From: Flavobacteriales bacterium
GTDB taxonomy: Bacteria > Bacteroidota > Bacteroidia > Flavobacteriales > BACL11
Reading direction: 5' to 3'
DNA length: 64,000 nucleotides
NCBI GenBank assembly: GCA_947502765.1
Contig: CANNBA010000001.1
Coordinates: forward strand, 33,124 to 97,123
In this document: piece after piece, positions 7,871 to 50,313 of the stretch
Layout of the letters: each line of letters opens with the position of its first letter
Position numbering within the stretch: position 1 is the stretch's first letter
The notes under the pieces: generated by a model
Database searches by the model: none
What the model was told of the DNA's origin: nothing
The model's input: the letters and a program-made list of their open reading frames with translations, nothing else
Translations under genes and position numbers: made by a program

Positions 7871-7897
7871 TGGACTGTATAATTAACATTGATAATA

Positions 7898-9854: not shown

Positions 9855-10430
9855 TTCTAAAACTCCTTCCAATTTAGCTTGTATAAGAATGTGTTCTATA
9901 AGCATATCCTCTCTGATATTTACAGGATCATATTGAGTTTTTAAATTATTATCCCAAAGTTTAGCCATGGTTTGCCAAAATAATGCATTAAAACTTCCTC
10001 TATATGATTTTACAATATCATAAGATGTAGTATTGGTTTCACGGTAAATCAGCTTTACCAATATCTTTCCTTCATTCATAGTAAGGCTCTTTAATCTATC
10101 GGTATATTCCTCTTTGACCCATTTGGTCACTTCTTTGGTGTACTGTTTCTTTTTTCTCCTTTTTGGAATATTCTCTAAATTTGATTTAATCTCATCTAGT
10201 TTCTTTTTCGCTATTAATGCATAGGGATACACTTTAAGCACTCTCCTTTTTAAAATGTAGTAAGCGTTTTTATCCTCTTTACTCTTAAATGCTAATATTT
10301 CTACTTCTGGTAATTTAGAAAAAAAAATAGTGTCCTGATCTATTACTTCAAAATCCAAGACATTTATAGTTTGTGCATTTACTGAAAGAAAAAATAAGCT
10401 AAAAAGAAAAAATATCGCAAATCTTTGCAT
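9852..10430 (-). CDS. Secreted conserved hypothetical protein (DUF4294-like)
   Basis: Signal peptide MQRFAIFFLFSLFFLSVNAQ. LTMNEGKILVKLIYRETNTTSYDIVKSYRG...WQTMAKLWDNNLK resembles DUF4294 as I recall it. The start overlaps the stop of the upstream peptidase gene (TAATG). Confidence 0.5.
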   Translation of the reverse strand: MQRFAIFFLFSLFFLSVNAQTINVLDFEVIDQDTIFFSKLPEVEILAFKSKEDKNAYYILKRRVLKVYPYALIAKKKLDEIKSNLENIPKRRKKKQYTKEVTKWVKEEYTDRLKSLTMNEGKILVKLIYRETNTTSYDIVKSYRGSFNALFWQTMAKLWDNNLKTQYDPVNIREDMLIEHILIQAKLEGVLE

Positions 10431-13400
10431 TATTGGATAATTATTTGTCTTTGAAAGGTTTCTTTTTCAGTTATAACTTTGATAGTATACATCCCTTTTG
10501 ATAATTCACGCATATCCAATACTGTAGCATTGCTGTAAGGGTATTGCAACATATAAAGGCGAGCACTTACATCAAAAACGAGTATTTGTTTAATTGTATT
10601 AGTAGCCGTAATAGTACACTTTGATGTTGTGGGATTTGGAAAAATATTTATTAGCTGATTATTTTCTGCAATAGAGACAGGTGAAGTAATGAATACTGCT
10701 GTAGCATCTGCATACTCTGATTTACAATTCTCTATCATGTTTAGATTGTAAAAAAAGTAGTAGTATTCAGGATCACCAAATGGGGAATTATGGCCTGTAA
10801 TACTTGCTAAGCTAGCCAGTTGATAAGGATAAGAAGCTCCAGAATTATTCCTGTATAAGCCAGAACTTCCACTAGAGATTCCTAATTCCAAATCATTCAT
10901 AACTGGAACATTAAAATCTACATTCAAAGTATTTAATCCTAACTGAACTGTAATTGTAGTATCTTCCACCACCTGTGAATTATTATCCCTTAATTCAAAT
11001 GTTATTGCTTGTGATGTTCCAGCATATACATCAAAAGAAACTAATTTAGAAGGAGTGTAACAATCAATAAGCAGATGTCTATCATTATTGTAATATCCTC
11101 CACCACCAATGCTGTTATCTAAGGGGCCACCAAATACTGAAGATCCTCCAAAATCTCTAGCATAATAAGTCGTATTCTGAGTTAAAACTGGTGTAGTAAA
11201 GTTTGCTCCAGAATATAAAGGAGCGCTTCCCAAAGTGTCTGAAAACCATTTTACATTATTTGAAGAACTGCTTAGAATAAATGAAGATGGATTTACAAAA
11301 GAAGTGTCATTATAAGTTATAGGAGCAGGAGTATAATTCACACTAAATAAATTTTGATAAAAAACAGTATCTGCACCCAAATTATTTGAAACTATTAATT
11401 GTACTGAATAGCTGCCACTACTTTGATAATTATGGACAGGATCTTGCAAGCTTGAAGTGTTTCCATCTCCAAAATCCCAACTCCAATTATTTGGCTGATT
11501 CTGACTCAAATCTGAAAAAGAAATTTCTCCTGAGCAAGATAATGAAGATGAAACAGAAAAATCTGCAATAGGAACATCAGTACATCCATTATAAGTTGGT
11601 TGTGCGTTTACAGCTATCGCCCTTCTTCCTTTTTTTCCATTAACTTTTGCACAAACTGAAAACCAACTATCCGTAATTAAAGGATTAGGATTTAGAAAGA
11701 ATGCATTTGTCGTTGTAGTTGTTGTCATTGAATCCATATACATATTTCCTAGCATGCTCACTTCATAAGATGTAGCACCACTTACTGCATTCCAAAAAAC
11801 ATAAACAGAATCTGCACAAATCCAGTCTACTACTACATTTTGAGGCACATTAATAATACTAAAAAAATCATCACTCTCATCTGAGAAACCATTTCTACTG
11901 ACACGTACTTTTGCATTATTCGCAACTACATTAGGTACTGAAACAAGTGTATATTGTCTATTACTACCATTAATACTAGAATTTACTCCTATCCAATTCG
12001 CCCCTCCATCAATAGTATATTCTAAAGTAAAATTACCGCTATTTCCATATGCATCCCATCTAATAATTTCTGATTCACTAGCAACCCAACCTTCTCCACC
12101 CACTGGGTAAGTAAGCGTTATTTCATCATTTAAAAAAACATAGGAAACCGAATACTCCTGAGGTCCAAAAGGAATAGAATTGCCACTTACCATTAGAGTG
12201 TAATTTCCAGGCAATGGATTATCAATAGTAATCTGTTCCATATTATTAATATGATCCGCTCCTTTTATAGCATTAGAATTAAGTGCTGCTGAATTTGCAG
12301 TAGTGTCAAGTATCCATGGTAATTCTACTGAATTGCCTAAATCATCAAACAATTCTATATCCAAATCATTCACTAAAGCCGGACTAGCATTAGCACTTGC
12401 TTCTTTATCATGCCAATATACCATTAATTTTAATTGATTTGTTCCAGAGGGAATAGTAATGGAATGCGTGTTAGTACCCCCCTGAGAAATATTATCAATA
12501 AGATACTGATTATTTTCTAGAATTGTGACTGCTCTAAGCACATTTACTTCTCCCCATCCATGCTGGAAATCAGGTCCAGGGTTTCCGATATCATCAGCAG
12601 CATTCAATAATACATTCTTCATAATAGAAGAATTTGGATTTTGTCCACCATTCAATTCTTTATAAGCCTGATACAATTGCCCCATTACACCAGCAATTCC
12701 TGGACAAGACATTGATGTTCCTGTTTTTAAACCATAATCATTGTCTGGAATAGTAGAATTTACAGAACTGCCTTTTGCTCCAATATCAGGTTTTATTCTG
12801 CCATCAGCAGCAGGACCCCTACTTGATGATGAGGCTAAAATTCCTGATGATGTAAGATTTGCTACAGCAATTACATTTTTGCCTTGTTTATGCCCTCCTG
12901 TTACATTGCCCCATCCGCTTCCTGCACCATATCCACAATCAGAACTTCCATCATTTCCTGCTGAAAACACATGAATGAGTGATGGATATAGATTAATCTG
13001 CTCATCTAAATCTTTTGCTAATGAGGTGTATCCAGCATTGCAGCCATTGCTATATGATTTTGAGGTAATAATTACATCATTATTTTGATATAATAAAGGA
13101 ACATCATAATAGTTGTTATTATTCGAACTATACACATATAAAAAGGCTGCATCAGACATACCAGCAGCAATTGGATCTAAATTGCCAGAACCCATAATAG
13201 TACCAGCAACATGATCACCATGATCGTCTCCACTACTTGTACTACATCCTCCACAATTTGACTGGTCAATTCTACCTTGATAATCAATATGAGGACCAAT
13301 TATTCCATCATCTTGCATCATAATATTTATTCCTTCTCCATTATAATGTCTTCCACTGGTATATTCAGTATTTATTGTATTTGACCTATGTAATGTTCTT

Positions 13401-14002
13401 CCCGTTTTATTTTCTTTCTCTGATGGAGAGTCAATAGGTTCAATATACCACACTTCATTAATAGTTGATAATGCAGATAATTCAATAGGGTCTATTTTTA
13501 AAGTAATACTATTGCTAAAACTATTTATAGCATCTATTTGATAATTACTCATTTTAAAAGATTCCTGAACACTAAATATATCTGCATTTTTATATAATAA
13601 TACTTTAACAGATAACTTGTTGTTATTCAAAGCCCAAACAGGAAAATTATTATTCTGCAACTTAGGATCAATTTTATAATGAGGCTTAATAGCAGAGATA
13701 GCAAGAATACCAAAATCAGATAAAGTAGTAATATTGATGTTTTTTGGAATACTTACTACATACGCTCTATTTGGAATATACTCCAAAAAATCAATACCAA
13801 TATCTCTAATATTTTCCTTTTCTTTATTGCTTGGAATCTTAGAAAAACACACAAAGTGATAATTTATATTATTTGATCTATCTATTTCAATATCATAGCT
13901 TAAAGTTATTGTGCCTGACTTTAGAAATAAAGTGCTTTCTTGAGCAAATAAATTAGCGCTAAAGAATGTAATTAAGAAAATAAGAAGAAGATGCTTTCTC
14001 AT
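10430..14002 (-). CDS. Secreted subtilisin-family (S8) serine peptidase with PKD domain and T9SS C-terminal domain
   Basis: Asp/His/Ser motifs MMQDDGI, DDHGDHVAGTI and GTSMSCPGIAGV. PKD motif WSWDFGDGNTS. C-terminus NIFPNPTTSKCTI...GMYTIKVI...RQIIIQ. Confidence 0.85.
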   Translation of the reverse strand: MRKHLLLIFLITFFSANLFAQESTLFLKSGTITLSYDIEIDRSNNINYHFVCFSKIPSNKEKENIRDIGIDFLEYIPNRAYVVSIPKNINITTLSDFGILAISAIKPHYKIDPKLQNNNFPVWALNNNKLSVKVLLYKNADIFSVQESFKMSNYQIDAINSFSNSITLKIDPIELSALSTINEVWYIEPIDSPSEKENKTGRTLHRSNTINTEYTSGRHYNGEGINIMMQDDGIIGPHIDYQGRIDQSNCGGCSTSSGDDHGDHVAGTIMGSGNLDPIAAGMSDAAFLYVYSSNNNNYYDVPLLYQNNDVIITSKSYSNGCNAGYTSLAKDLDEQINLYPSLIHVFSAGNDGSSDCGYGAGSGWGNVTGGHKQGKNVIAVANLTSSGILASSSSRGPAADGRIKPDIGAKGSSVNSTIPDNDYGLKTGTSMSCPGIAGVMGQLYQAYKELNGGQNPNSSIMKNVLLNAADDIGNPGPDFQHGWGEVNVLRAVTILENNQYLIDNISQGGTNTHSITIPSGTNQLKLMVYWHDKEASANASPALVNDLDIELFDDLGNSVELPWILDTTANSAALNSNAIKGADHINNMEQITIDNPLPGNYTLMVSGNSIPFGPQEYSVSYVFLNDEITLTYPVGGEGWVASESEIIRWDAYGNSGNFTLEYTIDGGANWIGVNSSINGSNRQYTLVSVPNVVANNAKVRVSRNGFSDESDDFFSIINVPQNVVVDWICADSVYVFWNAVSGATSYEVSMLGNMYMDSMTTTTTTNAFFLNPNPLITDSWFSVCAKVNGKKGRRAIAVNAQPTYNGCTDVPIADFSVSSSLSCSGEISFSDLSQNQPNNWSWDFGDGNTSSLQDPVHNYQSSGSYSVQLIVSNNLGADTVFYQNLFSVNYTPAPITYNDTSFVNPSSFILSSSSNNVKWFSDTLGSAPLYSGANFTTPVLTQNTTYYARDFGGSSVFGGPLDNSIGGGGYYNNDRHLLIDCYTPSKLVSFDVYAGTSQAITFELRDNNSQVVEDTTITVQLGLNTLNVDFNVPVMNDLELGISSGSSGLYRNNSGASYPYQLASLASITGHNSPFGDPEYYYFFYNLNMIENCKSEYADATAVFITSPVSIAENNQLINIFPNPTTSKCTITATNTIKQILVFDVSARLYMLQYPYSNATVLDMRELSKGMYTIKVITEKETFQRQIIIQ

Positions 14003-37989: not shown

Positions 37990-38913
37990 ATGACTGAAGA
38001 AAGATTTCAAAACAAAATTGATAGAGAAGAAAAAATTGAACCTAAAGATTGGATGCCTGAGGCTTACAGGCAGCATTTAATTCGACAAATTTCTCAACAT
38101 GCTCATTCTGAAATTATAGGTATGCAACCTGAAGGAAATTGGATCTCAAGAGCACCATCACTTAGGGCAAAAATGATACTACTTGCTAAAGTGCAAGATG
38201 AAGCTGGACATGGTCTCTATCTTTATTCTGCCTGTGAAACTTTAGGAATAAGTCGTGAAGAATTAATACAGCAACTTCATGATGGAGAAGCAAAATACTC
38301 TTCAATTTTCAATTATCCTACCCTTAGCTGGGCAGATATGGGAGCAATTGGCTGGCTCGTTGATGGTGCTGCTATTGTTAATCAAGTTTCCTTGCAGAGA
38401 ACCTCTTACGGCCCTTACTCAAGAGGAATGGTGAAAATATGTAAAGAAGAAAGTTTTCATCAAAGGCAGGGCTATGAAATTATGGCAGAAATGGCAAAAG
38501 GAACACCCGAACAAAAAGCAATGGCACAAGATGCTTTAAATCGTTTTTGGTGGCCATCTATTATGATGTTTGGGCCCAATGATTCTGATTCTCCAAGAAC
38601 CGGAAATGCAATGAAATGGAAAATAAAAAGACAAACTAATGATGAGTTAAGGCAAGATTTTATTGATAAAACTGTTGGGCAAGCTCAAGTAATTGGACTT
38701 ACTATTCCTGATAAAGATTTAAAATGGAATGAAGAAAAAGGACATTATGATTTTGGAGCAATGGACTGGGATGAATTTTGGAATGTAGTAAATGGAAATG
38801 GTCCCTGTAATAAACAAAGATTAGCCCATCATAAAAAAGCACATGATGAGGGAAAATGGGTTCGTGATGCTGCAAAGACATATGCTAAAAAACAAGAATT
38901 AGCACTAAATTAA
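37990..38913 (+). CDS. paaA: 1,2-phenylacetyl-CoA epoxidase catalytic subunit PaaA
   Basis: Di-iron ferritin-like motifs ([25 protein letters not shown]). Length and order match PaaA. The ATG at 37990 is preferred over the TTG at 37969. Confidence 0.9.
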
Positions 38914-38919
38914 ATTACT

Positions 38920-39204
38920 ATGACAGAGAATGCAACAGTTTGGGAAGTATTTATTCAAAGTAAAAATGGATTACCACACAAACATGCAGGAAATGTGCAT
39001 GCTGATGATAAAGTAATGGCTTTAGAAAATGCTAGAGAATTATATACAAGAAGAAATGAAGGATCGTGTATCTGGGTGGTAAAAGCTAGTGAAATTGTTT
39101 CTTCAGAATCGGAAGATAGTGAAGCGTTTTTTGATCCATCAAATGATAAAATGTACCGTCATCCCACTTTTTATACTATGCCTCAAGGATCAAAGCATAT
39201 TTAA
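38920..39204 (+). CDS. paaB: 1,2-phenylacetyl-CoA epoxidase subunit PaaB
   Basis: 94 aa. WEVFIQSKNGLPHKHAGNVHA...YTRR is typical of PaaB, and the gene follows paaA. Confidence 0.9.
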   Translation: MTENATVWEVFIQSKNGLPHKHAGNVHADDKVMALENARELYTRRNEGSCIWVVKASEIVSSESEDSEAFFDPSNDKMYRHPTFYTMPQGSKHI

Positions 39205-39206
39205 AA

Positions 39207-39953
39207 ATGAGCGCTATATTTACATACACTTTGCGTATTGCTGATAGTTCCTTAATTTTAGGCCAAAGAATGAGTGAATGGTGCGCAAAAGGCCCTACTT
39301 TAGAAGAAGACATAGCACTCTCAAATATATCACTAGATCTATTTGGACAGGCTAATGGATTTTATGAATATGCTTCTCAATTAGAGGGAGTAAGATCAGC
39401 TGATGATTTGGCTTTCTTAAGAAATGAAAGAGAGTTTTTTAATCATCAAATAGTAGAAATAGAGAATGGTCATTTTGGAAATACCACAGTTCGTAATTTT
39501 TTACATGATGTTTTTAGTTTTTTATTCTATACTGAGCTTTCAAATAGCAAGGATGAAACCTTAGCAGCTTTAGGGGCAAAATCATTAAAAGAAGTAAAAT
39601 ACCATTTACGCCATTCTACAAATTGGCTCATTCGTTTGGGAGATGGAACTCAGGAATCAAATACAAAAGTGCAAGAAGCATTAGATACTATTTGGCAATT
39701 TACTAACGAACTTTTTGAGATGGACGAAATTGATAAAGAGCTACTAAATAACGGAATTGGGGTTAATAATACTGAGTTAAGAAATCCGTGGAATGAAATC
39801 GTAAATAGTACACTCCAAAAAGCAAAACTAAAGCGACCTGAAGATGGTTATATGGCAACTGGAGGTAAAAAGGGAATCCACACAGAATACCTTGGTTTTC
39901 TATTAGCGGAAATGCAGTTTTTGCAAAGAGCATATCCTGATGCAAAATGGTAA
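39207..39953 (+). CDS. paaC: 1,2-phenylacetyl-CoA epoxidase subunit PaaC
   Basis: 248 aa. LRIADSSLILGQRMSEWCAKGPTLEEDIALSNISLDLFGQA is typical of PaaC. Confidence 0.85.
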   Translation: MSAIFTYTLRIADSSLILGQRMSEWCAKGPTLEEDIALSNISLDLFGQANGFYEYASQLEGVRSADDLAFLRNEREFFNHQIVEIENGHFGNTTVRNFLHDVFSFLFYTELSNSKDETLAALGAKSLKEVKYHLRHSTNWLIRLGDGTQESNTKVQEALDTIWQFTNELFEMDEIDKELLNNGIGVNNTELRNPWNEIVNSTLQKAKLKRPEDGYMATGGKKGIHTEYLGFLLAEMQFLQRAYPDAKW

Positions 39954-40392
39954 TACAAAATACATCTGGGAACTTTTAAACACCGTTCCTGATCCAGAAA
40001 TTCCAGTGATTTCTGTAGTTGAATTAGGCGTTATTCGTGATATTACTTTTACAGATAATTGCTATGAAATTTCAATTACTCCGACATATTCAGGTTGCCC
40101 TGCTGTAAAAACATTTATGGATGACATAAAAACTTGTCTTAAAGAAAATGAGATCCTGAATTTTAGCTTAAAACTTGTCTATGCTCCCGCTTGGACTACC
40201 GATTGGATGACAGAAGAAACCAAAGAGAAACTCAAAAAATACGGAATTTCCCCACCATCAAATACAGTGGTTTGCCCACTTTGTAATTCCCAGAAAACGA
40301 CTCTAGTAAGTGAATTTGGAGCAACAGCCTGTAAATCACTTCACAAATGTATTGATTGCTTAGAACCATTCGAACATTTTAAATGTATCTAG
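39940..40392 (+). CDS. paaD: Phenylacetate-CoA oxygenase assembly protein PaaD (DUF59 + Cys-rich C-terminus)
   Basis: VPDPEIPVISVVELGVIRD (DUF59/SufT-like) and a C-terminal CPLC...CIDC zinc-ribbon-like motif. Confidence 0.85.
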   Translation: MQNGNTKYIWELLNTVPDPEIPVISVVELGVIRDITFTDNCYEISITPTYSGCPAVKTFMDDIKTCLKENEILNFSLKLVYAPAWTTDWMTEETKEKLKKYGISPPSNTVVCPLCNSQKTTLVSEFGATACKSLHKCIDCLEPFEHFKCI

Positions 40393-40481
40393 AGTAAAAA
40401 CTTCTTGATTTTTCGTTTCTGTGCTCATAAATATAAGTTCAATAAGAAATTAGTATTTTAGCCATTTAATCTTATCTTAAG

Positions 40482-41252
40482 ATGATACAATACGAAATCA
40501 TAGCTGGTGTAGGAAAAATTACCTTAAATCGACCCGATAAATACCATTCTTTTGTAAGAGAAATGGCTCTACAATTGCAAGAAGCACTAGATAAATGCAA
40601 TGAAAATAATGAAGTGAGGGCTATTTTAATTACTTCAAATGGAAAGGCCTTTTGTGCTGGTCAAGATCTAGTAGAAGCAACGGATCCAAATGGACCTAGT
40701 TTAACACAAATTATTTTGGAACACTACAATCCCATCATCCGAAAGATAAGAAATATTGAAAAGCCTGTTGTAGCTGCTGTAAATGGAGTTGCTGCTGGAG
40801 CTGGAGCAAGTATTGCCCTTTGTTGCGATATTGTTGTTGCAACTCAAAGTGCCTCATTCATTCAAGCATTTAGTAAAATAGGCTTAATACCTGATAGTGG
40901 AGGAACTTTCTTTCTACCAAGATTAGTAGGCATGCAAAGAGCTACTGCTCTAATGATGACTGCTGATCCAGTTTCAGCTACTGCTGCAATGGAAATGGGT
41001 ATGATATACCGAATATTTTCAGATGAAACTTTTGAAGTGGAAAGTTGGAAATTAGTAAGTAAACTAGCCAAAATGCCAACCAAAGGATTAGGACTTACCA
41101 AAAGATTATTAAATGCATCTTACACCAATAATTTTGAAGAACAAATGGAAATGGAAGAAAAATGCCAAACTATTGCAGGAAAAACTAGTGATTTTAAAGA
41201 AGGAACAACAGCCTTCTTTGAAAAAAGAAAACCAAACTTTAAAGGGGAATAA
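40482..41252 (+). CDS. paaG: 2-(1,2-epoxy-1,2-dihydrophenyl)acetyl-CoA isomerase PaaG (crotonase fold)
   Basis: Collinear with E. coli PaaG as recalled: FCAGQDL, YNPIIRKI, AAVNGVAAGAGASIAL, AFSKIGLIPDSGGT and C-terminal EGTTAFFEKRKPNFKGE. Confidence 0.85.
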   Translation: MIQYEIIAGVGKITLNRPDKYHSFVREMALQLQEALDKCNENNEVRAILITSNGKAFCAGQDLVEATDPNGPSLTQIILEHYNPIIRKIRNIEKPVVAAVNGVAAGAGASIALCCDIVVATQSASFIQAFSKIGLIPDSGGTFFLPRLVGMQRATALMMTADPVSATAAMEMGMIYRIFSDETFEVESWKLVSKLAKMPTKGLGLTKRLLNASYTNNFEEQMEMEEKCQTIAGKTSDFKEGTTAFFEKRKPNFKGE

Positions 41253-42404
41253 ATGAAAGTAAGTGTAATTGGTGCTGGAACAATGGGAGTAGGAATTGCT
41301 CAAATAGCTGCAACAAATGGCTATGAGGTTTGTCTTTTTGATGCATTTGATGGAGCCATTGAAAATGCCCAGCAGCAACTTACAAATATAATTAACCGAT
41401 TAGTTGAAAAAGAGAAGATAACAGAATCTAAAAAGATTGAAATATTAGCCAGAATTAATTTCTCAAAAGATTTAAAAGATATAAAAGGAAGTGGATTAGT
41501 AATTGAAGCTATTATTGAAGATTTGAAGATAAAACAAAAGCTATTTTCAGATATCGAAAAATTAGTAGATGAAAAGTGTATTATCGCATCCAACACCTCT
41601 TCCCTATCCATTGCATCTATTGGCTCAGCTTGTAAAAAAGCCGAAAGAGTAATTGGTATTCACTTTTTTAACCCTGCCCCTTTAATGCCACTTGTGGAAA
41701 TTATACCTGCTGTACAAACAGCAGAAGAAACACTAAAGCTTGCCAAAGCTATGATTGATAGTTGGGGAAAAGTTACGGTTGTAGTAAAAGACACTCCAGG
41801 ATTTATTGTCAATCGAGTAGCTCGACCATTTTATGGAGAATCGCTTAGAATTTATGAAGAAGGAATTGCTGATTTCGCAACAATCGATTGGGCTCTTAAA
41901 GAAATTGGAGGATTCAAAATGGGACCTTTTGAATTGATGGACTATATAGGTAATGACATCAACTATACCGTAACAGAAACTGTATTTACTAGCTTTTATT
42001 TTGATCAAAGATACAAACCCTCTTTCACCCAAAAAAGAATGATGGAGGCAGGATTTTTAGGCAGAAAATCTGGTAGAGGATATTACGATTACTCATTAGA
42101 AAATTTACCAAAAGCCAATGAAGACAGGGAATTAGGGAAAAAAATATTATGGAGAGTTTTATCCATGCTGATCAATGAAGCTACTGATGCATTATTTTTA
42201 AAAATTGCAAGCCGTGAGGCTATTGATTTAGCCATGACAAAAGGTGTGAATTACCCAAAAGGACTACTTGCTTGGGCTGATGAAATAGGAATAAATAATG
42301 TTTTAAAACAATTGGAAGATTTACAAAAAGAATATGGGGAGGATAGGTACAGGCCCTCACCTTTACTAAAAAACATGGTTAAAGAGAATAAAACTTTTTA
42401 CTAA
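41253..42404 (+). CDS. paaH: 3-hydroxyadipyl-CoA dehydrogenase PaaH
   Basis: VSVIGAGTMGVGIAQ Rossmann motif, NTSSLSI and HFFNPAPLMPLVE, in paa operon context. Confidence 0.8.
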   Translation: MKVSVIGAGTMGVGIAQIAATNGYEVCLFDAFDGAIENAQQQLTNIINRLVEKEKITESKKIEILARINFSKDLKDIKGSGLVIEAIIEDLKIKQKLFSDIEKLVDEKCIIASNTSSLSIASIGSACKKAERVIGIHFFNPAPLMPLVEIIPAVQTAEETLKLAKAMIDSWGKVTVVVKDTPGFIVNRVARPFYGESLRIYEEGIADFATIDWALKEIGGFKMGPFELMDYIGNDINYTVTETVFTSFYFDQRYKPSFTQKRMMEAGFLGRKSGRGYYDYSLENLPKANEDRELGKKILWRVLSMLINEATDALFLKIASREAIDLAMTKGVNYPKGLLAWADEIGINNVLKQLEDLQKEYGEDRYRPSPLLKNMVKENKTFY

Positions 42405-42823
42405 TGGAATTGGCAAGAAAAGTAGTGGAAAAAATGATAACTGGAGATGCTTTTAGCCAATGGCTAGGCATAGAAATTTTGGAAATTACTCAGGGATATT
42501 GCAAATTAAAAATGACTGTAAGAAAAGAAATGACCAATGGCTTTGATATTGCCCATGGTGGCATTTCTTATTCTCTAGCAGATAGTGCATTAGCATTTGC
42601 TGCAAATTCAGATGGTATTCAGTCTTTATCTGTTGAAACTTCCATTGCGCATACCAAAAAGGTAATGAGTGGAGATACCCTAATTGCAGAAACCCAAGAA
42701 GTAAGTAAAAATGATAAATCTGCAATTTATAACATTAACATAACCAACCAAGATAATATAGAAGTTGCTCATTTTAAAGGTAAAGTTTACCGAACTAAAA
42801 AGGAGTGGTTTCCAAACAACTAA
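42404..42823 (+). CDS. paaI: Hydroxyphenylacetyl-CoA thioesterase PaaI (hotdog fold)
   Basis: 139 aa. NGFDIAHGGISYSLADSALAFA motif. TAATG overlap with paaH. Confidence 0.85.
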   Translation: MELARKVVEKMITGDAFSQWLGIEILEITQGYCKLKMTVRKEMTNGFDIAHGGISYSLADSALAFAANSDGIQSLSVETSIAHTKKVMSGDTLIAETQEVSKNDKSAIYNINITNQDNIEVAHFKGKVYRTKKEWFPNN

Positions 42824-42834
42824 AAACAAAAACA

Positions 42835-44217
42835 ATGATAAAAAAATTACTTATTTTACTTTTGATTCCATTTATCGGATTAGGACAGAACCCTAATTAT
42901 TCCGAACATGTTGCCCCAATAATCTATAATAAGTGCCTAAAATGCCATCACAATGGAGGAATAGCTACTTTATCACTAGAAACATATGCTAATACAGTCT
43001 CTAATGTAGGGATGATACAGCATGTCACAAGTACTGGAGAAATGCCACCATGGCCTCCAGACACATTATATCAAAATTATGCCTACCAGAATACCTTAAG
43101 TTTAAGTGAAATCACCACAATTATCGATTGGATCTCAAATGGCTCTCCACTTGGAAATACTGCATTATTACCAACAATGCCAACATTTTCTAATACCTCA
43201 CCATTTGGAACGCCTGATTTAGAGTTACAAATGCCCACATACGCAAGTACAGCAACTACAAACTCAGATGATTATGTATGTTTCTCAATTCCAACTGGTT
43301 TATTACAAACCCGAAAATTAAGAGCTATTGAAGTCATTCCAGGAAATTTGCAGACCGTACATCATGTATTAGTTTCAATAGATCTATTTCCAAATTCTTC
43401 AATTATCACCACAGCTAACTGTATGGGTCCGCAAGGAGATATGATTTATACTTATGCACCTGGAGCATTGCCATTAATTTTTCCTAATCTTGCTAATAAT
43501 TCTTTTGGAGTAGAATTACCTGCAAACAGTAGCGTTTCACTTGCAATGCATTACCCTGAAGGAAGTCTTGGACAGTTAGACAGTACTAAAGTTAGATTCT
43601 ATTTTTATCCTCAAAGCACAGTAATTAGAGAAATTTCAAGTGATTTTTTAATTAATGAAGGTTTGTTTGGACCACCATTTTATTTACCTCCAAATCAGAT
43701 TACAGAAATTACAGGTTCTTATGGCCCAATACCAGTAGATGTTTCTTTGATGTCAGTATTTCCACACATGCACCTTTTAGGAAAAGACATAATTTGTTAT
43801 GCAGTTACACCTACCAATGACACCATAAATTTAATAAAAATAAATCATTGGGATTTTGAGTGGCAAGGAACTTATTTATTTGAGAAATTTATTAAAATAC
43901 CATCTGGAAGTATGATATACGCTAAAGGAAATTATGATAACAATACTCCTTTGATGGTACAATCAGGATTCAACACCACAAATGAGATGTTTATTGTTGG
44001 TTTTCAATATCTTCCATACCAATTTGGTGATGAGAATATCTCCATTGAAACTCCATCAATTGCTACAAACACCAATTCAGTTATAGTAAATTCATCAAGA
44101 AAAAAGCTGCTTAAAATATCAGATGTTACTGGTAAAGAAGTGTACTACAAAAAAAATACACCTCTATTGTACATTTATGATGATGGCACAGTAGAAAAAA
44201 GACTAACCATAGAATAA
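42835..44217 (+). CDS. Exported CxxCH-domain / PHM-DBH-like copper monooxygenase with short C-terminal sorting-like tail
   Basis: Signal peptide MIKKLLILLLIPFIGLGQ. CLKCH plus EMPPW. Copper ligand set VHHVLV, LAMHYP, FPHMHLLGK and TTNEMF in canonical order. Tail LLYIYDDGTVEKRLTIE. The ATG at 42835 is preferred over 42805. Confidence 0.7.
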   Translation: MIKKLLILLLIPFIGLGQNPNYSEHVAPIIYNKCLKCHHNGGIATLSLETYANTVSNVGMIQHVTSTGEMPPWPPDTLYQNYAYQNTLSLSEITTIIDWISNGSPLGNTALLPTMPTFSNTSPFGTPDLELQMPTYASTATTNSDDYVCFSIPTGLLQTRKLRAIEVIPGNLQTVHHVLVSIDLFPNSSIITTANCMGPQGDMIYTYAPGALPLIFPNLANNSFGVELPANSSVSLAMHYPEGSLGQLDSTKVRFYFYPQSTVIREISSDFLINEGLFGPPFYLPPNQITEITGSYGPIPVDVSLMSVFPHMHLLGKDIICYAVTPTNDTINLIKINHWDFEWQGTYLFEKFIKIPSGSMIYAKGNYDNNTPLMVQSGFNTTNEMFIVGFQYLPYQFGDENISIETPSIATNTNSVIVNSSRKKLLKISDVTGKEVYYKKNTPLLYIYDDGTVEKRLTIE

Positions 44218-44219
44218 TT

Positions 44220-45422
44220 ATGAGTACATACATAATAGATGCAATTCGAACTCCAATTGGTAATTTTGGTGGCAGCCTAAAAGATGTACGAGCTGATGAT
44301 TTAGGAGCAATTCCAATAAAAGAACTTTTAAAAAGAACAGGAATTGATGCTTCTAAAATTGATGATGTAATTTTGGGCTGTGCCAATCAAGCTGGAGAAG
44401 ATAACCGAAATGTAGCTCGTATGTCTTTACTACTGGCTGGCTTACCATTTTCAGTACCTGGAGAAACCGTTAACCGCTTATGTGCTTCAGGAATGTCGGC
44501 AGTTATACATGCTCATAGAGCTATTGCAGCTGGTGATGGCGATTTATTTATAGCTGGTGGTGTTGAAAACATGACAAGAGGACCTTGGGTAATCTCAAAA
44601 GCCTCTAAACCTTTTGCTAGAGATATGCAGATGTATGATTCCTCTTTTGGTTGGAGATTCATAAACCCAAAAATGAAGGCTCTTTATGGAGTTGAGGGGA
44701 TGGGGAATACGGCTGAGAATTTAGCAGAAAAATACAATATCTCTCGTGAGGATCAAGATATGTTTGCTTACCATTCACAAATGAAAGCTGCTAAAGCACA
44801 AAGTGAAGGAAGATTTAATAGTGAGATTGTTGCTGTAGAAATTCCTCAAAGAAAAGGCGATCCAATTATTTTCAATCAGGATGAGTTTATAAAAGGGAAT
44901 ACTTCATTAGAAGTTCTAGCCAAATTACGCCCAGCATTTAAAACAGAAGCAGGTACTGTTACTGCAGGAAATGCCTCAGGCCTTAATGATGGAGCTGCTG
45001 CAATGTTATTAGCATCTGACAAAGGGGTAAAAGAAAACAACCTCACTCCTATTGCAAAAATTATAAGCTCAGCAGTTGTAGGTGTGGAGCCAAGAATTAT
45101 GGGCATAGGACCTGTAAAAGCAGCTAACAAAGCACTTGAAAAAGCAGGATTAAAAATGAAAGATATGGATGTTATTGAATTAAATGAAGCTTTTTCAGCT
45201 CAAGCCCTGGCTTGCATCCGAGAATGGGGACTTGAAGATAACGACCCAAGAATTAACCCAAATGGTGGAGCAATTGCTCTTGGGCATCCACTTGGGGTAA
45301 GTGGAACAAGAATTTTACAAACTGCTGCTATTGAACTTCAAAAGCAACATAAAAAATATGCCTTAGTAACTATGTGTATAGGTGTTGGGCAAGGCTATGC
45401 AACTATAATTGAAAGCGTGTAA
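44220..45422 (+). CDS. paaJ: 3-oxoadipyl-CoA / 3-oxo-5,6-dehydrosuberyl-CoA thiolase PaaJ
   Basis: 400 aa thiolase. NRLCASGMSA (active Cys), NEAFSAQ, GHPLGVSG and CIGVGQG. Confidence 0.85.
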   Translation: MSTYIIDAIRTPIGNFGGSLKDVRADDLGAIPIKELLKRTGIDASKIDDVILGCANQAGEDNRNVARMSLLLAGLPFSVPGETVNRLCASGMSAVIHAHRAIAAGDGDLFIAGGVENMTRGPWVISKASKPFARDMQMYDSSFGWRFINPKMKALYGVEGMGNTAENLAEKYNISREDQDMFAYHSQMKAAKAQSEGRFNSEIVAVEIPQRKGDPIIFNQDEFIKGNTSLEVLAKLRPAFKTEAGTVTAGNASGLNDGAAAMLLASDKGVKENNLTPIAKIISSAVVGVEPRIMGIGPVKAANKALEKAGLKMKDMDVIELNEAFSAQALACIREWGLEDNDPRINPNGGAIALGHPLGVSGTRILQTAAIELQKQHKKYALVTMCIGVGQGYATIIESV

Positions 45423-46015
45423 TGATTTATCAATTTAACGGATATAAACCAGTTATCGATCCTAGTGCTTTTGTACATAAGGAGGCAACCATTATTGGCA
45501 ATGTAATTATCGGAAAAAATGTATATATTGGTCCTGGAGCATCACTTAGAGGAGATTGGGGACAAATTACTATTAAAGATGGTTGCAATGTTCAGGACAA
45601 TTGTATTATTCATATTTTTCCTGGAAAAGATGTGATATTACAGGAAAATGCTCATATTGGCCATGGTGCCATTATTCATGGAGCAAATATTGGTAAAAAT
45701 GCTATGATTGGGATGAATGCGGTAGTAATGGATGATGCCAATGTTGGGGATGAGTGTATTGTTGGGGCTTTATGTTTTGTAAAAGCAGAAATGCAGATTC
45801 CTAGCAGGAAGATTGTGGTGGGCAATCCTGCTCAAATAAAAGGGGATGTTTCTGATGATATGATAAACTGGAAAAGTAAAGGAACTCAGTTGTATCAGCA
45901 ATTACCCAAAGAATGTAAAACTTTAATGAAGCAGTGCACCCCACTTTCTAAAATTGAAAAAAACAGAAAGGAAAAACAAAAAATAACTTTTGAAACTTGG
46001 AAAAAAATAAAATAA
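45422..46015 (+). CDS. paaY: PaaY-like hexapeptide-repeat protein (gamma-carbonic-anhydrase fold)
   Basis: Left-handed beta-helix hexapeptide repeats (IGNVIIGKNVYIGPGASLRGD...) in paa context. TAATG overlap with paaJ. Confidence 0.75.
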   Translation: MIYQFNGYKPVIDPSAFVHKEATIIGNVIIGKNVYIGPGASLRGDWGQITIKDGCNVQDNCIIHIFPGKDVILQENAHIGHGAIIHGANIGKNAMIGMNAVVMDDANVGDECIVGALCFVKAEMQIPSRKIVVGNPAQIKGDVSDDMINWKSKGTQLYQQLPKECKTLMKQCTPLSKIEKNRKEKQKITFETWKKIK

Positions 46016-46016
46016 T

Positions 46017-46127
46017 ATGAAAAAACTACTACTTGTATTACTTGCTTTGCCTTTGCTATTTAGCTCTTGCATTACAAAGAAAAAAGGATGTGATGGTTTG
46101 AAAGAAAATTTAACTTTAAAACAATAG
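46017..46127 (+). CDS. Possible 36-aa micro-lipoprotein (not in ORF track)
   Basis: ATG at 46017 gives MKKLLLVLLALPLLFSSC ITKKKGCDGLKENLTLKQ*, with a perfect lipobox. The first 18 nt are identical to the start of the next gene at 46147. Confidence 0.3.
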   Translation: MKKLLLVLLALPLLFSSCITKKKGCDGLKENLTLKQ

Positions 46128-46146
46128 ATTAACAATAAAAAACATT

Positions 46147-47505
46147 ATGAAAAAACTACTACTTATTTTAACTTTTGCATTTTCGGTTTTTTTTGCAAAT
46201 GCTCAATGCGCTCCGGACCCTCAATATACAGCTGCAGGTATTTATCCTGATAGTGCTACTGGGCTTTTACCTGCATATGTTGGGCTAGCCTATAATCAAA
46301 ATATTACAATAATTACACCTACTGATACAGTGGTTGATGTGTTTGGGCAAATGCTTCCGGTAACTATTGATAGTATTAATTTAACTAATGTTATAGGACT
46401 TCCTGCTAGTTTCGCTTACTCTTGTGACCCTACTAGTTGCTCTTTTCCTGGAGGTACTATTAAATGTGCTGCACTTTCTTCAGCTGCTCCAACATCTTCT
46501 GAAGTAGGATTGCATCAAATAATATTTGAAACAACAACATATTTGAGTAATGTTCCATTTATTGGAACAACGACACAAAATGATGTTTTTTATTATTATC
46601 TAGAGATTTTTGGGACAACAACTACAACTTGGAATTGTATTAATGGAAACTGTGTAGACCCAGGAGATGGAAGCGGACAATATTGGAATCAAAATGCTTG
46701 TTTAGCAAATTGTGGAGTTCCAACTGGACCAACTACCTATGTGCCAGACAATAACTTTGAATCCTATTTAGAGATAAATGGAATGGGAGATGGTATTTGG
46801 CTTAACGACTCTGTATCAACAGCTAATATTAATACCGCTACCTATTTAAATGTAAATAATCAAAGTATTGCCGACTTAACAGGAATAGAAGATTTTACTA
46901 CATTAACTACTTTGAATTGTAGTGGGAATCAACTCAGCAGCTTGGATGTAAGTCAAAATACTGCTTTAGATACTTTGGTGTGTGCTGATAATCACCTCAC
47001 CAGCCTTGATATAAGTCAAAATACTGTTTTAACTATTTTGTCTTGTGATTTGAATCAACTCACCAGCCTTAATGTAAGTCAAAATACTGCTTTAACTAAT
47101 TTGGATTGTTGGAATAATCAACTCACCAGCCTTAATCTAAGTCAAAATACTGCTTTAATTCGTTTGATGTGTGATGATAATCAACTCAGCAGCTTAGATG
47201 TAAGAAATGGGAATAATACTAACTTTCAATATTTTTATGCTTCTTCAAACCCTAATCTATATTGTATAGATGTAGATGATGATGCTTTTAGTACTTTTAA
47301 TTGGACAAGCTCTAATTATTTTGGTTTTGACTCACAACACTACTTCAGTAATAACTGTAACCCTTCTGCAATACAAGAACAAACTACCAACAAAGAACTG
47401 CTAAAAGTAACTGACCTCTTAGGTAGAGAAACAAAAGCCACTAACCAACTTCTCTTTTACATCTATAATGATGGAACAGTAGAGAAAAAAGTAATTATTG
47501 AATAA
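46147..47505 (+). CDS. Exported leucine-rich-repeat protein with one 4-Cys module and short C-terminal sorting-like tail
   Basis: Signal peptide MKKLLLILTFAFSVFFANAQ. TWNCINGNCVDPGDGSGQYWNQNACLANCG. About five 21-aa LRRs (LDxSQNTALTxLxCxxNQLTSL). Tail LLGRE..FYIYNDGTVEKKVIIE. Confidence 0.7.
   Translation: MKKLLLILTFAFSVFFANAQCAPDPQYTAAGIYPDSATGLLPAYVGLAYNQNITIITPTDTVVDVFGQMLPVTIDSINLTNVIGLPASFAYSCDPTSCSFPGGTIKCAALSSAAPTSSEVGLHQIIFETTTYLSNVPFIGTTTQNDVFYYYLEIFGTTTTTWNCINGNCVDPGDGSGQYWNQNACLANCGVPTGPTTYVPDNNFESYLEINGMGDGIWLNDSVSTANINTATYLNVNNQSIADLTGIEDFTTLTTLNCSGNQLSSLDVSQNTALDTLVCADNHLTSLDISQNTVLTILSCDLNQLTSLNVSQNTALTNLDCWNNQLTSLNLSQNTALIRLMCDDNQLSSLDVRNGNNTNFQYFYASSNPNLYCIDVDDDAFSTFNWTSSNYFGFDSQHYFSNNCNPSAIQEQTTNKELLKVTDLLGRETKATNQLLFYIYNDGTVEKKVIIE
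46876..47196 (+). repeat. In-frame 63-nt tandem coding repeats (LRR units)
   Basis: AGTCAAAATACTGCTTTA...CAACTCACCAGCCTT recurs with a 63-nt period inside 46147-47505. Confidence 0.8.
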
Positions 47506-47506
47506 A

Positions 47507-49555
47507 ATGATACATTACCAGAATTACGCATTAGGAAAATGGATAAAAGGTGATGGAGAAGGAACACCACTTTTTAATGCTATTACAGGTAATGAAATAG
47601 GAAGAGCATCCTCACAAGGATTGGATTTTGCTGAAATGATGGATTATGCTCGTAAAGTTGGGTCGCCTGCTCTAAGAAAAATGACTTTTCAACAAAGAGG
47701 ATTGATGTTAAAAGCATTAGCACTTCATTTGCATAATGTAAAAAATAAATTTTATCCTTTAAGTGCACAAACTGGAGCAACAAAATTAGATTCTTGGATT
47801 GATATAGAAGGAGGAATTGGAAATATTTTTACCAATGCCTCCTTAAGAAAAAACTTCCCCGATCTACCCTATCATATAGATGGAAATGCCGCTCCCCTAT
47901 CTAAAAACGGAACTTTTATTGGACATCATATCATGACTCCAAAACAAGGAGTTGCCATACATATTAACGCCTTTAACTTTCCAATTTGGGGAATGCTTGA
48001 AAAAATTGCAGTCAATTTAATGGCTGGAGTTCCCTCTATTGTAAAACCGGCCACTCTTACTTGTTTCCTTACTGAGATGATGGTGCGTGAAATTGTAGAT
48101 TCTAAAATTTTACCACCAGCAAGTTTGCAGCTCATTTGTGGTAGTGCAAATGGCATTTTGGACTCTGTTACTGCTGAAGATGTAGTTACTTTTACTGGAA
48201 GTGCTTCCACTGGCAAAGTGTTAAAATCGCATCCAAGATTAATTCAAGAGGCAGTTCCATTTAATATGGAGGCAGACTCTCTTAACTGCTCAGTACTTGG
48301 AGAAGATGCAGTTCCTGGCACTCCAGAGTTTGATATTTTCATAAAAGAAGTTCAAAAAGAAATTACGGTAAAAGCAGGCCAAAAATGCACTGCAGTTCGT
48401 AGGATTATAGTTCCTGAAAAATTAGTAGAAGACGTCCAAATTGCACTCGGAAAAAGGCTCTCACAAACCATTATTGGCGACCCTGCAGTTGAAGGAGTAA
48501 GAATGGGCTCTTTAGCAGGAAAGCAGCAAAAAATAGAAGTAACTGAAAAAGTAAAACAACTTGCTCAAACTCAAGAAATAATTTACGGAAGTTTAGAAGA
48601 ATTTGAAGTGATAGGTGCTGATAAAAATAAAGGAGCTTTTATCTCCCCTATCCTATTTTTAAATGATGATCCCTTTAATAAAACCGATTGTCATAACATT
48701 GAAGCTTTCGGCCCTGTTGCTACTATTTTGCCTTACAAAACCCTAGCTGAAGCCATTGAGCTCTCTAGAATGGGCAAAGGTTCTTTGGTCTGTTCTATCA
48801 TCACCAATGATATGAAAATTGCTGAAGAATTTGTTTTAGGAGCTGCCTCTATGCACGGCAGAATTTTGGTGCTTAATGAGGCTTGTGCTAAGGAAAGTAC
48901 AGGGCATGGTTCTCCTATGCCATTACTTACCCATGGTGGGCCAGGTCGTGCAGGTGGTGGTGAAGAAATGGGTGGAGTTAGAGGAATAAAACATTATTTG
49001 CAAAGAACTGCAATACAAGGACATCCTACCACAATTACCGCACTTACTAAACAGTATCAAGTGGGTGGAGCTCAGAATACTGCTGGGCCTCATATTTTTA
49101 GAAAACACTTTGAAGAAATTGAAATTGGCGATACCGTAATTACCGATAAACATTTGGTGACATTGGATAATATTGAAGCTTTTGCCGAGTTGAGTGGCGA
49201 TAAATTCTATGCTCATATGGATGAAAATTCTTTGGATGGAACCATATTTACTGAGCGCGTAGCACACGGTTATTTCATTTTGAGTAAAGCCGCTGGTTTA
49301 TTTGTTGATCCTGCCAAAGGACCGGTATTACTAAATTATGGGATTGATGAGTGCCGGTTTACCAAACCTGTGTACCCAGGGATGACAGTTGGAGTTCGTT
49401 TTACAGCAAAAGAAAAAATAAGCCAAGAAAAGAGAGAGGATAGCGATATTGCAAAAGGAATTGTAAAATTCTTGGTAGATGTATATGATGATGAGGGAGA
49501 CACAGTAATGTTAGCCACCATTTTAACTATGGTAAAAAAATTAAACCAAAAATGA
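47507..49555 (+). CDS. paaZ: Bifunctional oxepin-CoA hydrolase / 3-oxo-5,6-dehydrosuberyl-CoA semialdehyde dehydrogenase PaaZ
   Basis: Collinear with E. coli PaaZ as recalled: SAQTGAT..DSWIDIEGGIG, HINAFNFPIWGMLEK, EADSLNC, KAGQKCTA.RRIIVP, ESTGHGSP.P...HGGPGRAGGGEE, and a MaoC part SGDKFYAHMD. Confidence 0.9.
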   Translation: MIHYQNYALGKWIKGDGEGTPLFNAITGNEIGRASSQGLDFAEMMDYARKVGSPALRKMTFQQRGLMLKALALHLHNVKNKFYPLSAQTGATKLDSWIDIEGGIGNIFTNASLRKNFPDLPYHIDGNAAPLSKNGTFIGHHIMTPKQGVAIHINAFNFPIWGMLEKIAVNLMAGVPSIVKPATLTCFLTEMMVREIVDSKILPPASLQLICGSANGILDSVTAEDVVTFTGSASTGKVLKSHPRLIQEAVPFNMEADSLNCSVLGEDAVPGTPEFDIFIKEVQKEITVKAGQKCTAVRRIIVPEKLVEDVQIALGKRLSQTIIGDPAVEGVRMGSLAGKQQKIEVTEKVKQLAQTQEIIYGSLEEFEVIGADKNKGAFISPILFLNDDPFNKTDCHNIEAFGPVATILPYKTLAEAIELSRMGKGSLVCSIITNDMKIAEEFVLGAASMHGRILVLNEACAKESTGHGSPMPLLTHGGPGRAGGGEEMGGVRGIKHYLQRTAIQGHPTTITALTKQYQVGGAQNTAGPHIFRKHFEEIEIGDTVITDKHLVTLDNIEAFAELSGDKFYAHMDENSLDGTIFTERVAHGYFILSKAAGLFVDPAKGPVLLNYGIDECRFTKPVYPGMTVGVRFTAKEKISQEKREDSDIAKGIVKFLVDVYDDEGDTVMLATILTMVKKLNQK

Positions 49556-50313
49556 AAATGACAGAATATGTACATTTAAATACCGAAAATGGAATAGGAA
49601 CTATTGAGTTTTTTCATCATCAATCTAACTCCCTACCTGGGCTTATACTAGCAGAATTAGCCAATGCTATAACAAAGGGGGGAAAAGATAATGCCATCAA
49701 AGTAATCGTACTTAAAAGCGCTGGTGATAAAGCATTTTGCGCAGGCGCTTCTTTTGATGAGTTAGTAGCAATTAATAATGAAGCCTCTGGTAAACAATTC
49801 TTCTCTGGTTTTGCCAATGTGATAAATGCAGCTCGTAAATGCCCTAAATTTATTATTGGACGTGTACAAGGTAAAGCAGTTGGTGGTGGTGTTGGTATGG
49901 CAGCTGCAACAGATTATTGCTTTGCTACCCAATTTGCAGGAGCTAAATTATCTGAACTTGCCATTGGAATTGGTCCTTTTGTAGTTGGCCCTGCTGTTGA
50001 GCGTAAAATAGGAACTGCTGCTTTTTCTGCAATGACTATAAATGCCACTAAATGGTTTGAGGCTTCTTGGGCAAGAGAAAAAGGGCTTTACACTGAAGTA
50101 TTTGATACAATAGCGGAAATGGATATTGGAATTGAAAAATTAGCTACTACCCTTTCCTCTTCAAATCCTGAAGCAATGGAGGGTTTAAAGAAAATAATGT
50201 GGCAAGGAACTGATCATTGGGACGAACTTTTAATGGAAAGAGCTACAAGTAGTGGAAAATTGGTTTTATCTGATTTTACTAAAAATGCTATAGCAAAGTT
50301 TAAAGCAAAATAA
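49552..50313 (+). CDS. Enoyl-CoA hydratase/isomerase family protein (candidate PaaF role)
   Basis: Crotonase-fold motifs KAFCAGASFDEL, GKAVGGGVGMAAA and LSELAIGIGP. Overlaps the paaZ stop. Confidence 0.65.
   Translation: MKMTEYVHLNTENGIGTIEFFHHQSNSLPGLILAELANAITKGGKDNAIKVIVLKSAGDKAFCAGASFDELVAINNEASGKQFFSGFANVINAARKCPKFIIGRVQGKAVGGGVGMAAATDYCFATQFAGAKLSELAIGIGPFVVGPAVERKIGTAAFSAMTINATKWFEASWAREKGLYTEVFDTIAEMDIGIEKLATTLSSSNPEAMEGLKKIMWQGTDHWDELLMERATSSGKLVLSDFTKNAIAKFKAK

Follow-up and report, generated by a model that had tools for sequence, protein, structure and literature searches.

Three otherwise unrelated exported proteins, encoded in a 64,000-nucleotide stretch of Flavobacteriales DNA (hereafter the window; lineage BACL11, GenBank assembly GCA_947502765.1, contig CANNBA010000001.1, positions 33,124 to 97,123), end in near-identical tails of about 45 residues, and these tails are likely to be a short form of the type A sorting domain of the secretion system designated type IX (T9SS), that is, a truncated T9SS signal. 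By alignment and structure prediction, the tail would retain three elements of the seven-strand sandwich formed by a complete type A C-terminal domain (CTD), namely strand 3 and its motif B loop, strand 6, which holds motif D, and strand 7, which holds the Lys of motif E, whereas the PNP strand would be gone, as would the middle strands; secretion of the proteins that carry it would then be T9SS-dependent. The carriers are a deiodinase/thioredoxin-fold-like protein (carrier 1), a copper type II monooxygenase-like protein (carrier 2) and a leucine-rich-repeat (LRR) protein (carrier 3), whose coordinates are collected in Table 1. The original prediction had reported near-identical tails on three unrelated exported proteins and was exact in this respect, as translation of nucleotides 1716-1832, 44098-44217 and 47389-47505 returns precisely the three tails it quoted, each followed by a stop codon, and the passengers match NF038285, PF03712 and LRR_4, respectively. 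The tails share the pattern LLKxxDLLG[KR]E, 10 or 11 residues, YIYDDGTVEK[KR]xxIE and stop, and a six-frame regular-expression scan located the core [DN]DG.[IVL]EK at three sites only in the window, each exactly 5 residues before a stop codon.

The window tails belong to a very large family. A tail profile of 45 positions, searched against 1.84 billion cluster representatives (50% identity), matches 3,720 representatives at E ≤ 1e-3 and 1,442 at E ≤ 1e-10, and in all but one of the top 150 matches the tail ends at the C-terminus or within one residue of it. The exception, the 180-residue metagenomic protein P0153, has the tail at residues 105-149, ending in RIVIE and followed by 31 unrelated residues, an arrangement that fits the loss of a stop codon, or an error in sequencing, better than it fits a true internal domain. 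A first profile search had returned hundreds of metagenomic fragments, all shorter than 80 residues, which were used to derive the consensus ..sIqEHTTNKELLKVTDLLGRETKQTNQPLFYIYDDGTVEKRIVIE. When one genome per species was scanned, at least 343 loci were confirmed to carry the tail. The best 77 of these come from about 35 metagenome-assembled genomes (MAGs), all of uncultured and mostly marine Flavobacteriales (Cryomorphaceae, Crocinitomicaceae, Fluviicola, UBA4466, UBA952 and BACL11); Tara, Saanich Inlet and Fram Strait bins are among the samples. A genome holds several carriers, often in tandem. One MAG, JBLGCF01, is labelled Thalassomonas sp., a gammaproteobacterium, and holds four Flavobacteriales-type tail loci (L011, L014, L042 and L053) and an ortholog of carrier 2, and P0277 was noted alongside these; the bin is probably mislabelled or contaminated, and some "Weeksellaceae" labels may be similarly loose.

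From the genome loci 86 carriers were extracted, 80 of them full-length, and 79 were scanned with curated models. The expectation that the motif would prove to be a C-terminal feature enriched in secreted proteins was borne out: it is strictly C-terminal, and by a crude test a signal-peptide-like N-terminus is present in 72 of the 80 full-length carriers against 197 of 524 other open reading frames (ORFs) (Fisher p 9e-20), and most of the 8 failures are explained on inspection by an evident signal peptide or a misplaced start codon. Carriers, both in the window and at other loci, have strikingly uniform signal peptides (MKKLLLILLCLPMIGFGQ...), nearly all with Gln at the predicted +1 position, as would fit the formation of N-terminal pyroglutamate after cleavage by signal peptidase I that is habitual in Bacteroidota. 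The passengers (SprB repeats, M43 peptidase, cupredoxins, PAD_porph, GH18, PKD and LRR) are typical T9SS cargo.

Sequence conservation is far higher in the tail itself than in canonical CTDs, with 17 nearly invariant positions and a rigid spacing, in which 10 or 11 residues separate G-[RK] from YIYDDGTVEK and five more, in 79 of the 86 tails, lead to the stop. This pattern bears directly on the suggestion that decay of canonical CTDs left the tails as remnants without function, or that they are an in-frame DNA repeat element. Such an origin would agree with the tail corresponding to part of a canonical CTD only, but it sits badly with many near-invariant positions across thousands of proteins and at least 35 genomes, with the fixed 10/11-residue gap and distance from EK to the stop, and with the presence of the motif only in frame at ORF ends. 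Moreover, the DNA of the three window tails differs at many synonymous sites, so that their similarity is kept at the protein level and is not that of a DNA repeat. The conservation pattern effectively refutes remnants and repeats alike, and neither is now credible.

The relationship to type A CTDs rests on a comparison with the canonical domains of the same genomes. The original prediction had contrasted the short tails with full type A CTDs on two other proteins of the window, a contrast that holds, as both domains exceed the curated cutoffs of 23 bits for TIGR04183 and 27 bits for PF18962. When the 86 tails were compared by hhalign with 26 canonical CTDs from the same loci, the two profiles aligned co-terminally with a P of 6e-4, a value reached by 0 of 100 column-shuffled controls (best control P 0.012). 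The alignment pairs LLKItDvLGRE with "i.i.n..G..v" (motif B), after which it places two deletions, of 12 and 4 columns, and it pairs LFY/IY with "GiY.i" (motif D) and EKrIIIE with "k.ik" (motif E). Motif B of the tail reads D-L-L-G-[RK], with the Gly present in 86 of 86 tails and followed by Arg or Lys in 71, and the Lys of EK[KR] in motif E is invariant. Of the models TIGR04183, TIGR04131 (type B) and NF033708 (type C), only the first matches carriers, with weak, sub-threshold matches in 8 of the 79 scanned (best E 1e-4); the other two match none of them, even at E ≤ 10. The homology of the tail to type A CTDs is weak but specific. A hidden Markov model (HMM) iterated from the two window CTDs reached some tails in its last rounds together with three unrelated proteins of about 567 residues, and was set aside as having drifted.

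Structure prediction gives a similar outline. AlphaFold2 was run on the last 80 residues of carrier 3, with an alignment of 123 sequences, and separately on full-length carrier 2, and both runs gave a disordered linker followed by the same three strands at a predicted local distance difference test score (pLDDT) of 75-90. In carrier 3 the strands are LLKVT (nucleotides 47398-47412), LLFYIY and VEKKV (pLDDT 81-90), and in carrier 2 they are LLKIS (residues 425-429), LLYIY (444-448) and VEKR (453-456), preceded by a low-confidence linker at residues 401-421; the full-length carrier 2 model is mediocre (mean pLDDT 59), and its tail and linker part alone was used. The predicted tail is one three-stranded sheet, not the seven-strand beta-sandwich of a type A CTD, and the equivalence of its strands to those of canonical CTDs rests on alignment, not superposition. 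Together, the deletions placed by hhalign and the three predicted strands agree with the earlier description of the tail as the DxxGR and final-strand parts of a type A CTD that lacks the PNP strand and the middle segment.

A number of observations weigh against a T9SS assignment. All three window tails are sub-threshold for TIGR04183 and PF18962: the match of carrier 2 to TIGR04183 reaches 13.1 bits (E 0.07; residues 417-451 to profile positions 5-37), and neither model matches the tails of carriers 1 and 3. PF18962 matches a single carrier of the 79 (E 0.009), and the hhalign probability for tail versus canonical CTD is only 29%. In motif D the aromatic-Ile element (F-Y-I-Y) is kept and the Gly of GxY is absent (N-x-P-L-F-Y-I-Y), and the upstream linker motif described below is present in its strict form in only one of the three tails of the window. 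A Foldseek search of the PDB with the predicted tail gave nothing significant, the CTD chain of RemA (8gl6_D) ranking fifth with E 1.4. Finally, no T9SS machinery gene was found among the 10 unannotated window ORFs scanned with NCBIfam models; the presence of the system is inferred from canonical CTD cargo in the window and on carrier contigs.

It has to be considered, then, whether the tail is a sorting or anchoring tag that some non-T9SS machinery recognizes, or no secretion signal but a small domain for binding or for retention at the surface. Its failure against the curated T9SS models would agree with this, as would the lack of any significant fold or sequence match in the PDB, where a search with the tail sequence returned a chance match only (E 1.4). 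Even with upstream residues included, the tails did not become ordinary TIGR04183 or PF18962 domains, an outcome that had been raised as a possible refutation of their distinctness. The weak homology that they do show, however, is specific to type A CTDs and co-terminal with them. The tail, as read from its sequence, has no hydrophobic or transmembrane segment and no sortase- or exosortase-type motif; a sortase- or exosortase-type tag was ruled out for want of the hydrophobic segment, and an outer-membrane protein beta-signal because the tail ends in Glu, not in an aromatic residue. Carriers among the best 77 loci were found only in Flavobacteriales genomes, and no dedicated neighboring gene was found around the 86 carriers. 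The short-tail carriers contain no second CTD in the scan with curated models, and without the tail no route across the outer membrane could be identified for them. Of the two possibilities offered originally, a truncated T9SS signal is thus the favored one, and a tag for another machinery, which gained no positive support, is highly unlikely.

The replacement of canonical CTDs by the short tail on homologous passengers also argues against a tag of that kind. The clearest case involves two esterase-like (BD-FAE) proteins from different MAGs, L064:269-2032, which ends in the short tail, and L007:7048-8649(-), which ends in PF18962 (65 bits). Their passengers are 94.5% identical over 438 residues and then diverge, with L007 running straight into the canonical PF18962 domain and L064 continuing through a Cys-rich module and an SprB-like repeat to the short tail; as judged from these sequences, this is a recent exchange of C-terminal modules. 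At greater distance, the whole passenger of carrier 2 shares 47% identity with L002:6164-7675, a protein with a C-terminal PF18962 domain (49 bits), and a 210-residue short-tail carrier (L054) is 41% identical to two proteins (L028 and L055) that end in PF18962 (52 bits). Among the matches listed for a query with carrier 2 without its tail, more than 120 close orthologs of about 466 residues are 69-100% identical to it, and none of these listed orthologs has a PF18962 tail, so that they say nothing on such exchanges. An ortholog of carrier 1 (L022:3142-4416) ends in the same short tail.

A linker motif provides a further point of contact between the two kinds of domain. The motif [STGAP][STGA][IVL]x[EDNQ] precedes 46 of the 86 tails and 13 of 25 canonical CTDs, compared with 9% of background windows, and in 44 of the 46 motif-bearing tails its Ile lies 44-47 residues from the C-terminus.

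Short CTDs as such have a published precedent. Type A CTDs are seven-strand sandwiches whose fold is specified by conserved motifs, and a Lys that is nearly invariant near the C-terminus matters for function (PMC10994853). In Prevotella intermedia, 48 short CTDs of 40-55 residues have been described (PMC11969387, Open Biol 2025, Veith/Reynolds group); in AlphaFold models these form one sheet of three strands, which correspond to strands 3, 6 and 7 of long CTDs, a basic residue is preferred after the motif B Gly, motif E has an extra basic residue, and an Ile-centered cleavage motif lies in the flexible linker (PMC11969387). Five of the cleavage sites were determined by mass spectrometry, C-terminal glycosylation was found on cargo of both CTD length classes, short and long CTDs were modeled on the same PorV site, and P. 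intermedia was called the only species with such short CTDs (PMC11969387). The marine tail, compared here with the published description of the P. intermedia domains, resembles them in its length (about 45-46 residues from the inferred cleavage site to the C-terminus), in a single predicted three-stranded sheet that maps by alignment to strands 3, 6 and 7, in the Gly plus basic residue of motif B and the Lys plus extra basic residue of motif E, in an Ile-centered motif in the upstream linker, and in its coexistence with long CTDs in one genome and its use on LRR proteins and proteases.

There are also differences between the two groups. The marine tail comes from uncultured Flavobacteriia, whereas P. 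intermedia is an oral species of the Bacteroidia. The motif D Gly of GxY is invariant in P. intermedia and missing from the marine N-x-P-L-F-Y-I-Y-D-D-G, the spacing from motif B to motif D is fixed at 10-11 residues in the marine tail and ranges over 1-6 residues in P. intermedia, and the marine tails vary far less in sequence. Most of the P. intermedia short CTDs were picked up by generic CTD HMMs, whereas TIGR04183 and PF18962 miss the marine tails; and cleavage and glycosylation have been seen in P. intermedia, whereas for the marine tail cleavage is a prediction from sequence. The concept of short CTDs is already published, and it is the marine family itself that is sequence-distinct, very large and newly recognized; a search of the literature found no description of it, nor of short CTDs outside P. 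intermedia.

Set against canonical type A domains, such as those of RemA, RemZ and NucA of Flavobacterium johnsoniae and RgpB of Porphyromonas gingivalis, the tail likewise closes Sec-exported proteins at their very C-terminus, and it has the same D..G[RK] loop and aromatic strand, with Lys 5-6 residues from the end. The two also share the upstream linker motif, the genomes and the kinds of passenger, interchange on homologous passengers, and lack a cognate partner gene. The tail differs in being about 45 rather than 70-90 residues long, in its three predicted strands instead of seven, in having no PNP strand, and in its sub-threshold scores. With type B (TIGR04131) and type C (ChiA; NF033708) domains it would share a C-terminal sorting role in the T9SS of Bacteroidota; unlike them, it shows no sequence match to either model, and the PorP/SprF-like neighbor typical of type B is absent at carriers.

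This last point is relevant to a further explanation, in which the tail is a T9SS signal of a distinct class, with its own PorV- or PorP-like shuttle and a different fate for the cargo, for instance release instead of anchoring. Canonical CTD proteins share the window and other contigs with short-tail carriers, often as neighboring genes, and this coexistence of long and short forms in the same genomes means that something may distinguish them; the extreme conservation of the tail suggests a specific partner. CTDs are known to carry a targeting signal besides the secretion signal, and type B CTDs have specialized shuttles, the genes for which (PorP/SprF-like) are typically linked to those of their cargo (PMC12618676). 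No recurrent partner gene, PorP/SprF-like or other, was found around the 86 carriers, however, the only synteny being that of the catabolic cluster described below. The lack of a recurrent partner agrees better with a general shuttle, such as PorV, than with a type B arrangement. The modeling of both P. intermedia length classes on the same PorV site, with cleavage and glycosylation of both (PMC11969387), and the exchange of tail and canonical CTD on nearly identical passengers point the same way, and a distinct class of this kind is rather improbable. A stronger version, which is unlikely while still deserving some weight, would have the tail as a separate, self-sufficient minimal class that evolved independently in streamlined marine Flavobacteriales and folds only when bound, with a shuttle or fate of its own; if true, the cell would sort "long" and "short" cargo differently, toward release or surface attachment.

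If the tail is instead a short type A domain, its route can be sketched as follows. Judging from its sequence, the signal peptide would take the protein through Sec and be cut before the Gln, and the passenger would fold in the periplasm with the tail hanging on the flexible Thr/Ser/Asn-rich linker that AlphaFold2 predicts. By homology and from published structures and models, the tail would then enter the SprA/Sov translocon and be gripped by the loops of the PorV shuttle, presumably with its loop D-L-L-G-[RK]-E, and the Lys in VEK[KR]xxIE near the terminus, at the positions that they hold in long CTDs. PorV would carry the cargo to the PorU sortase, which would cut the linker, probably at [ST][STGA]-I-x-E, about 45 residues from the end, after which the passenger would either be set free or become attached to the surface of the cell. 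Lacking a second sheet that could bury a core, such a domain might be constrained at nearly every residue, which would explain the unusual conservation of its sequence.

The family has practical consequences for the study of Bacteroidota, in which T9SS cargo is normally predicted with TIGR04183 or PF18962. These models miss a whole class of probable cargo (3,720 clusters) in abundant uncultured marine Flavobacteriales, so that secretome and ecological inferences are likely to be biased, with surface enzymes, adhesins and LRR proteins undercounted. Three-strand short CTDs would also not be peculiar to P. intermedia, contrary to the published statement (PMC11969387). The sharp consensus of about 40-45 residues may serve as a natural experiment on what SprA and PorV need to recognize, and the short tail is a candidate compact secretion tag.

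Table 1. Short-tail carriers and canonical CTDs of the window (signal peptides read from the sequence)
Feature	Position (nt)	Strand	Details
Carrier 1, exported deiodinase/thioredoxin-fold-like protein	564-1832	+	ORF, 422 aa; NF038285, E 1.8e-15 (partial)
Carrier 1, predicted signal peptide	564-617	+	aa 1-18, then Gln
Carrier 1, short tail	1695-1829	+	45 aa, TELSKTNSRLSKIINLLGKEEQQRNNQLQIHIFDDGKIEKRIVIE; diverges most among the three window tails
Carrier 2, exported copper type II monooxygenase-like protein	42835-44217	+	460 aa from ATG; PF03712 (Cu2_monoox_C), 36.6 bits
Carrier 2, predicted signal peptide	42835-42885	+	aa 1-17, then Gln
Carrier 2, short tail	44080-44214	+	45 aa; the 44098-44217 of the original prediction is the tail core plus stop
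Carrier 3, exported LRR protein	46147-47505	+	ORF, 452 aa; LRR_4, 36.8 bits
Carrier 3, predicted signal peptide	46147-46203	+	aa 1-19, then Gln
Carrier 3, short tail	47365-47502	+	includes linker motif S-A-I-Q-E (putative PorU cleavage-site motif)
Canonical type A T9SS CTD of FG-GAP protein (7889-9808)	9602-9805	+	aa 572-639; TIGR04183 38.4 bits, PF18962 48.4 bits
Canonical type A T9SS CTD of S8 peptidase/PKD protein (10430-14002)	10433-10645	-	aa 1120-1190; TIGR04183 35.8 bits, PF18962 37.9 bits

The three short-tail proteins make up 3 of the 5 recognizable cargo proteins of the window. Carrier 1 also scores 23.9 bits against PF00837, under the cutoff of that model, and the ORF of carrier 2 is 470 residues long if read from an alternative GTG start at 42805.

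Carriers 2 and 3 are embedded in a phenylacetate (paa-like) catabolic cluster at about 37990-50313, an assignment read from the translations, with genes for ring-oxygenase subunits, enoyl-CoA hydratase, 3-hydroxyacyl-CoA dehydrogenase, thioesterase, thiolase, and PaaY-like and PaaZ-like proteins. PaaZ-, thiolase- and PaaY-like neighbors recur in 8, 5 and 4 loci of other MAGs, respectively, so this odd arrangement of carriers and paa-like genes is conserved.

A Cys-rich module of about 27 residues, C-x5-7-C-x-DPG-x-G-x-G-x-Y-x5-7-C-x3-C, is present in five tandem copies in the FG-GAP protein (residues 390-555), between the FG-GAP repeats and the canonical CTD, a region over which no Pfam model matches. 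Carrier 3 has a single copy (C..C.DPG.G.G.Y..C..C) at residues 164-189, and in the fetched loci the module is found in 11 of the 86 tail carriers and in 2 of 584 other ORFs; it looks like an unmodeled disulfide-bonded linker or stalk domain of T9SS cargo. Immediately upstream of the FG-GAP protein, 6674-7798 encodes a protein of the TIGR03032 family (355.8 bits), a hypothetical equivalog of unknown function.

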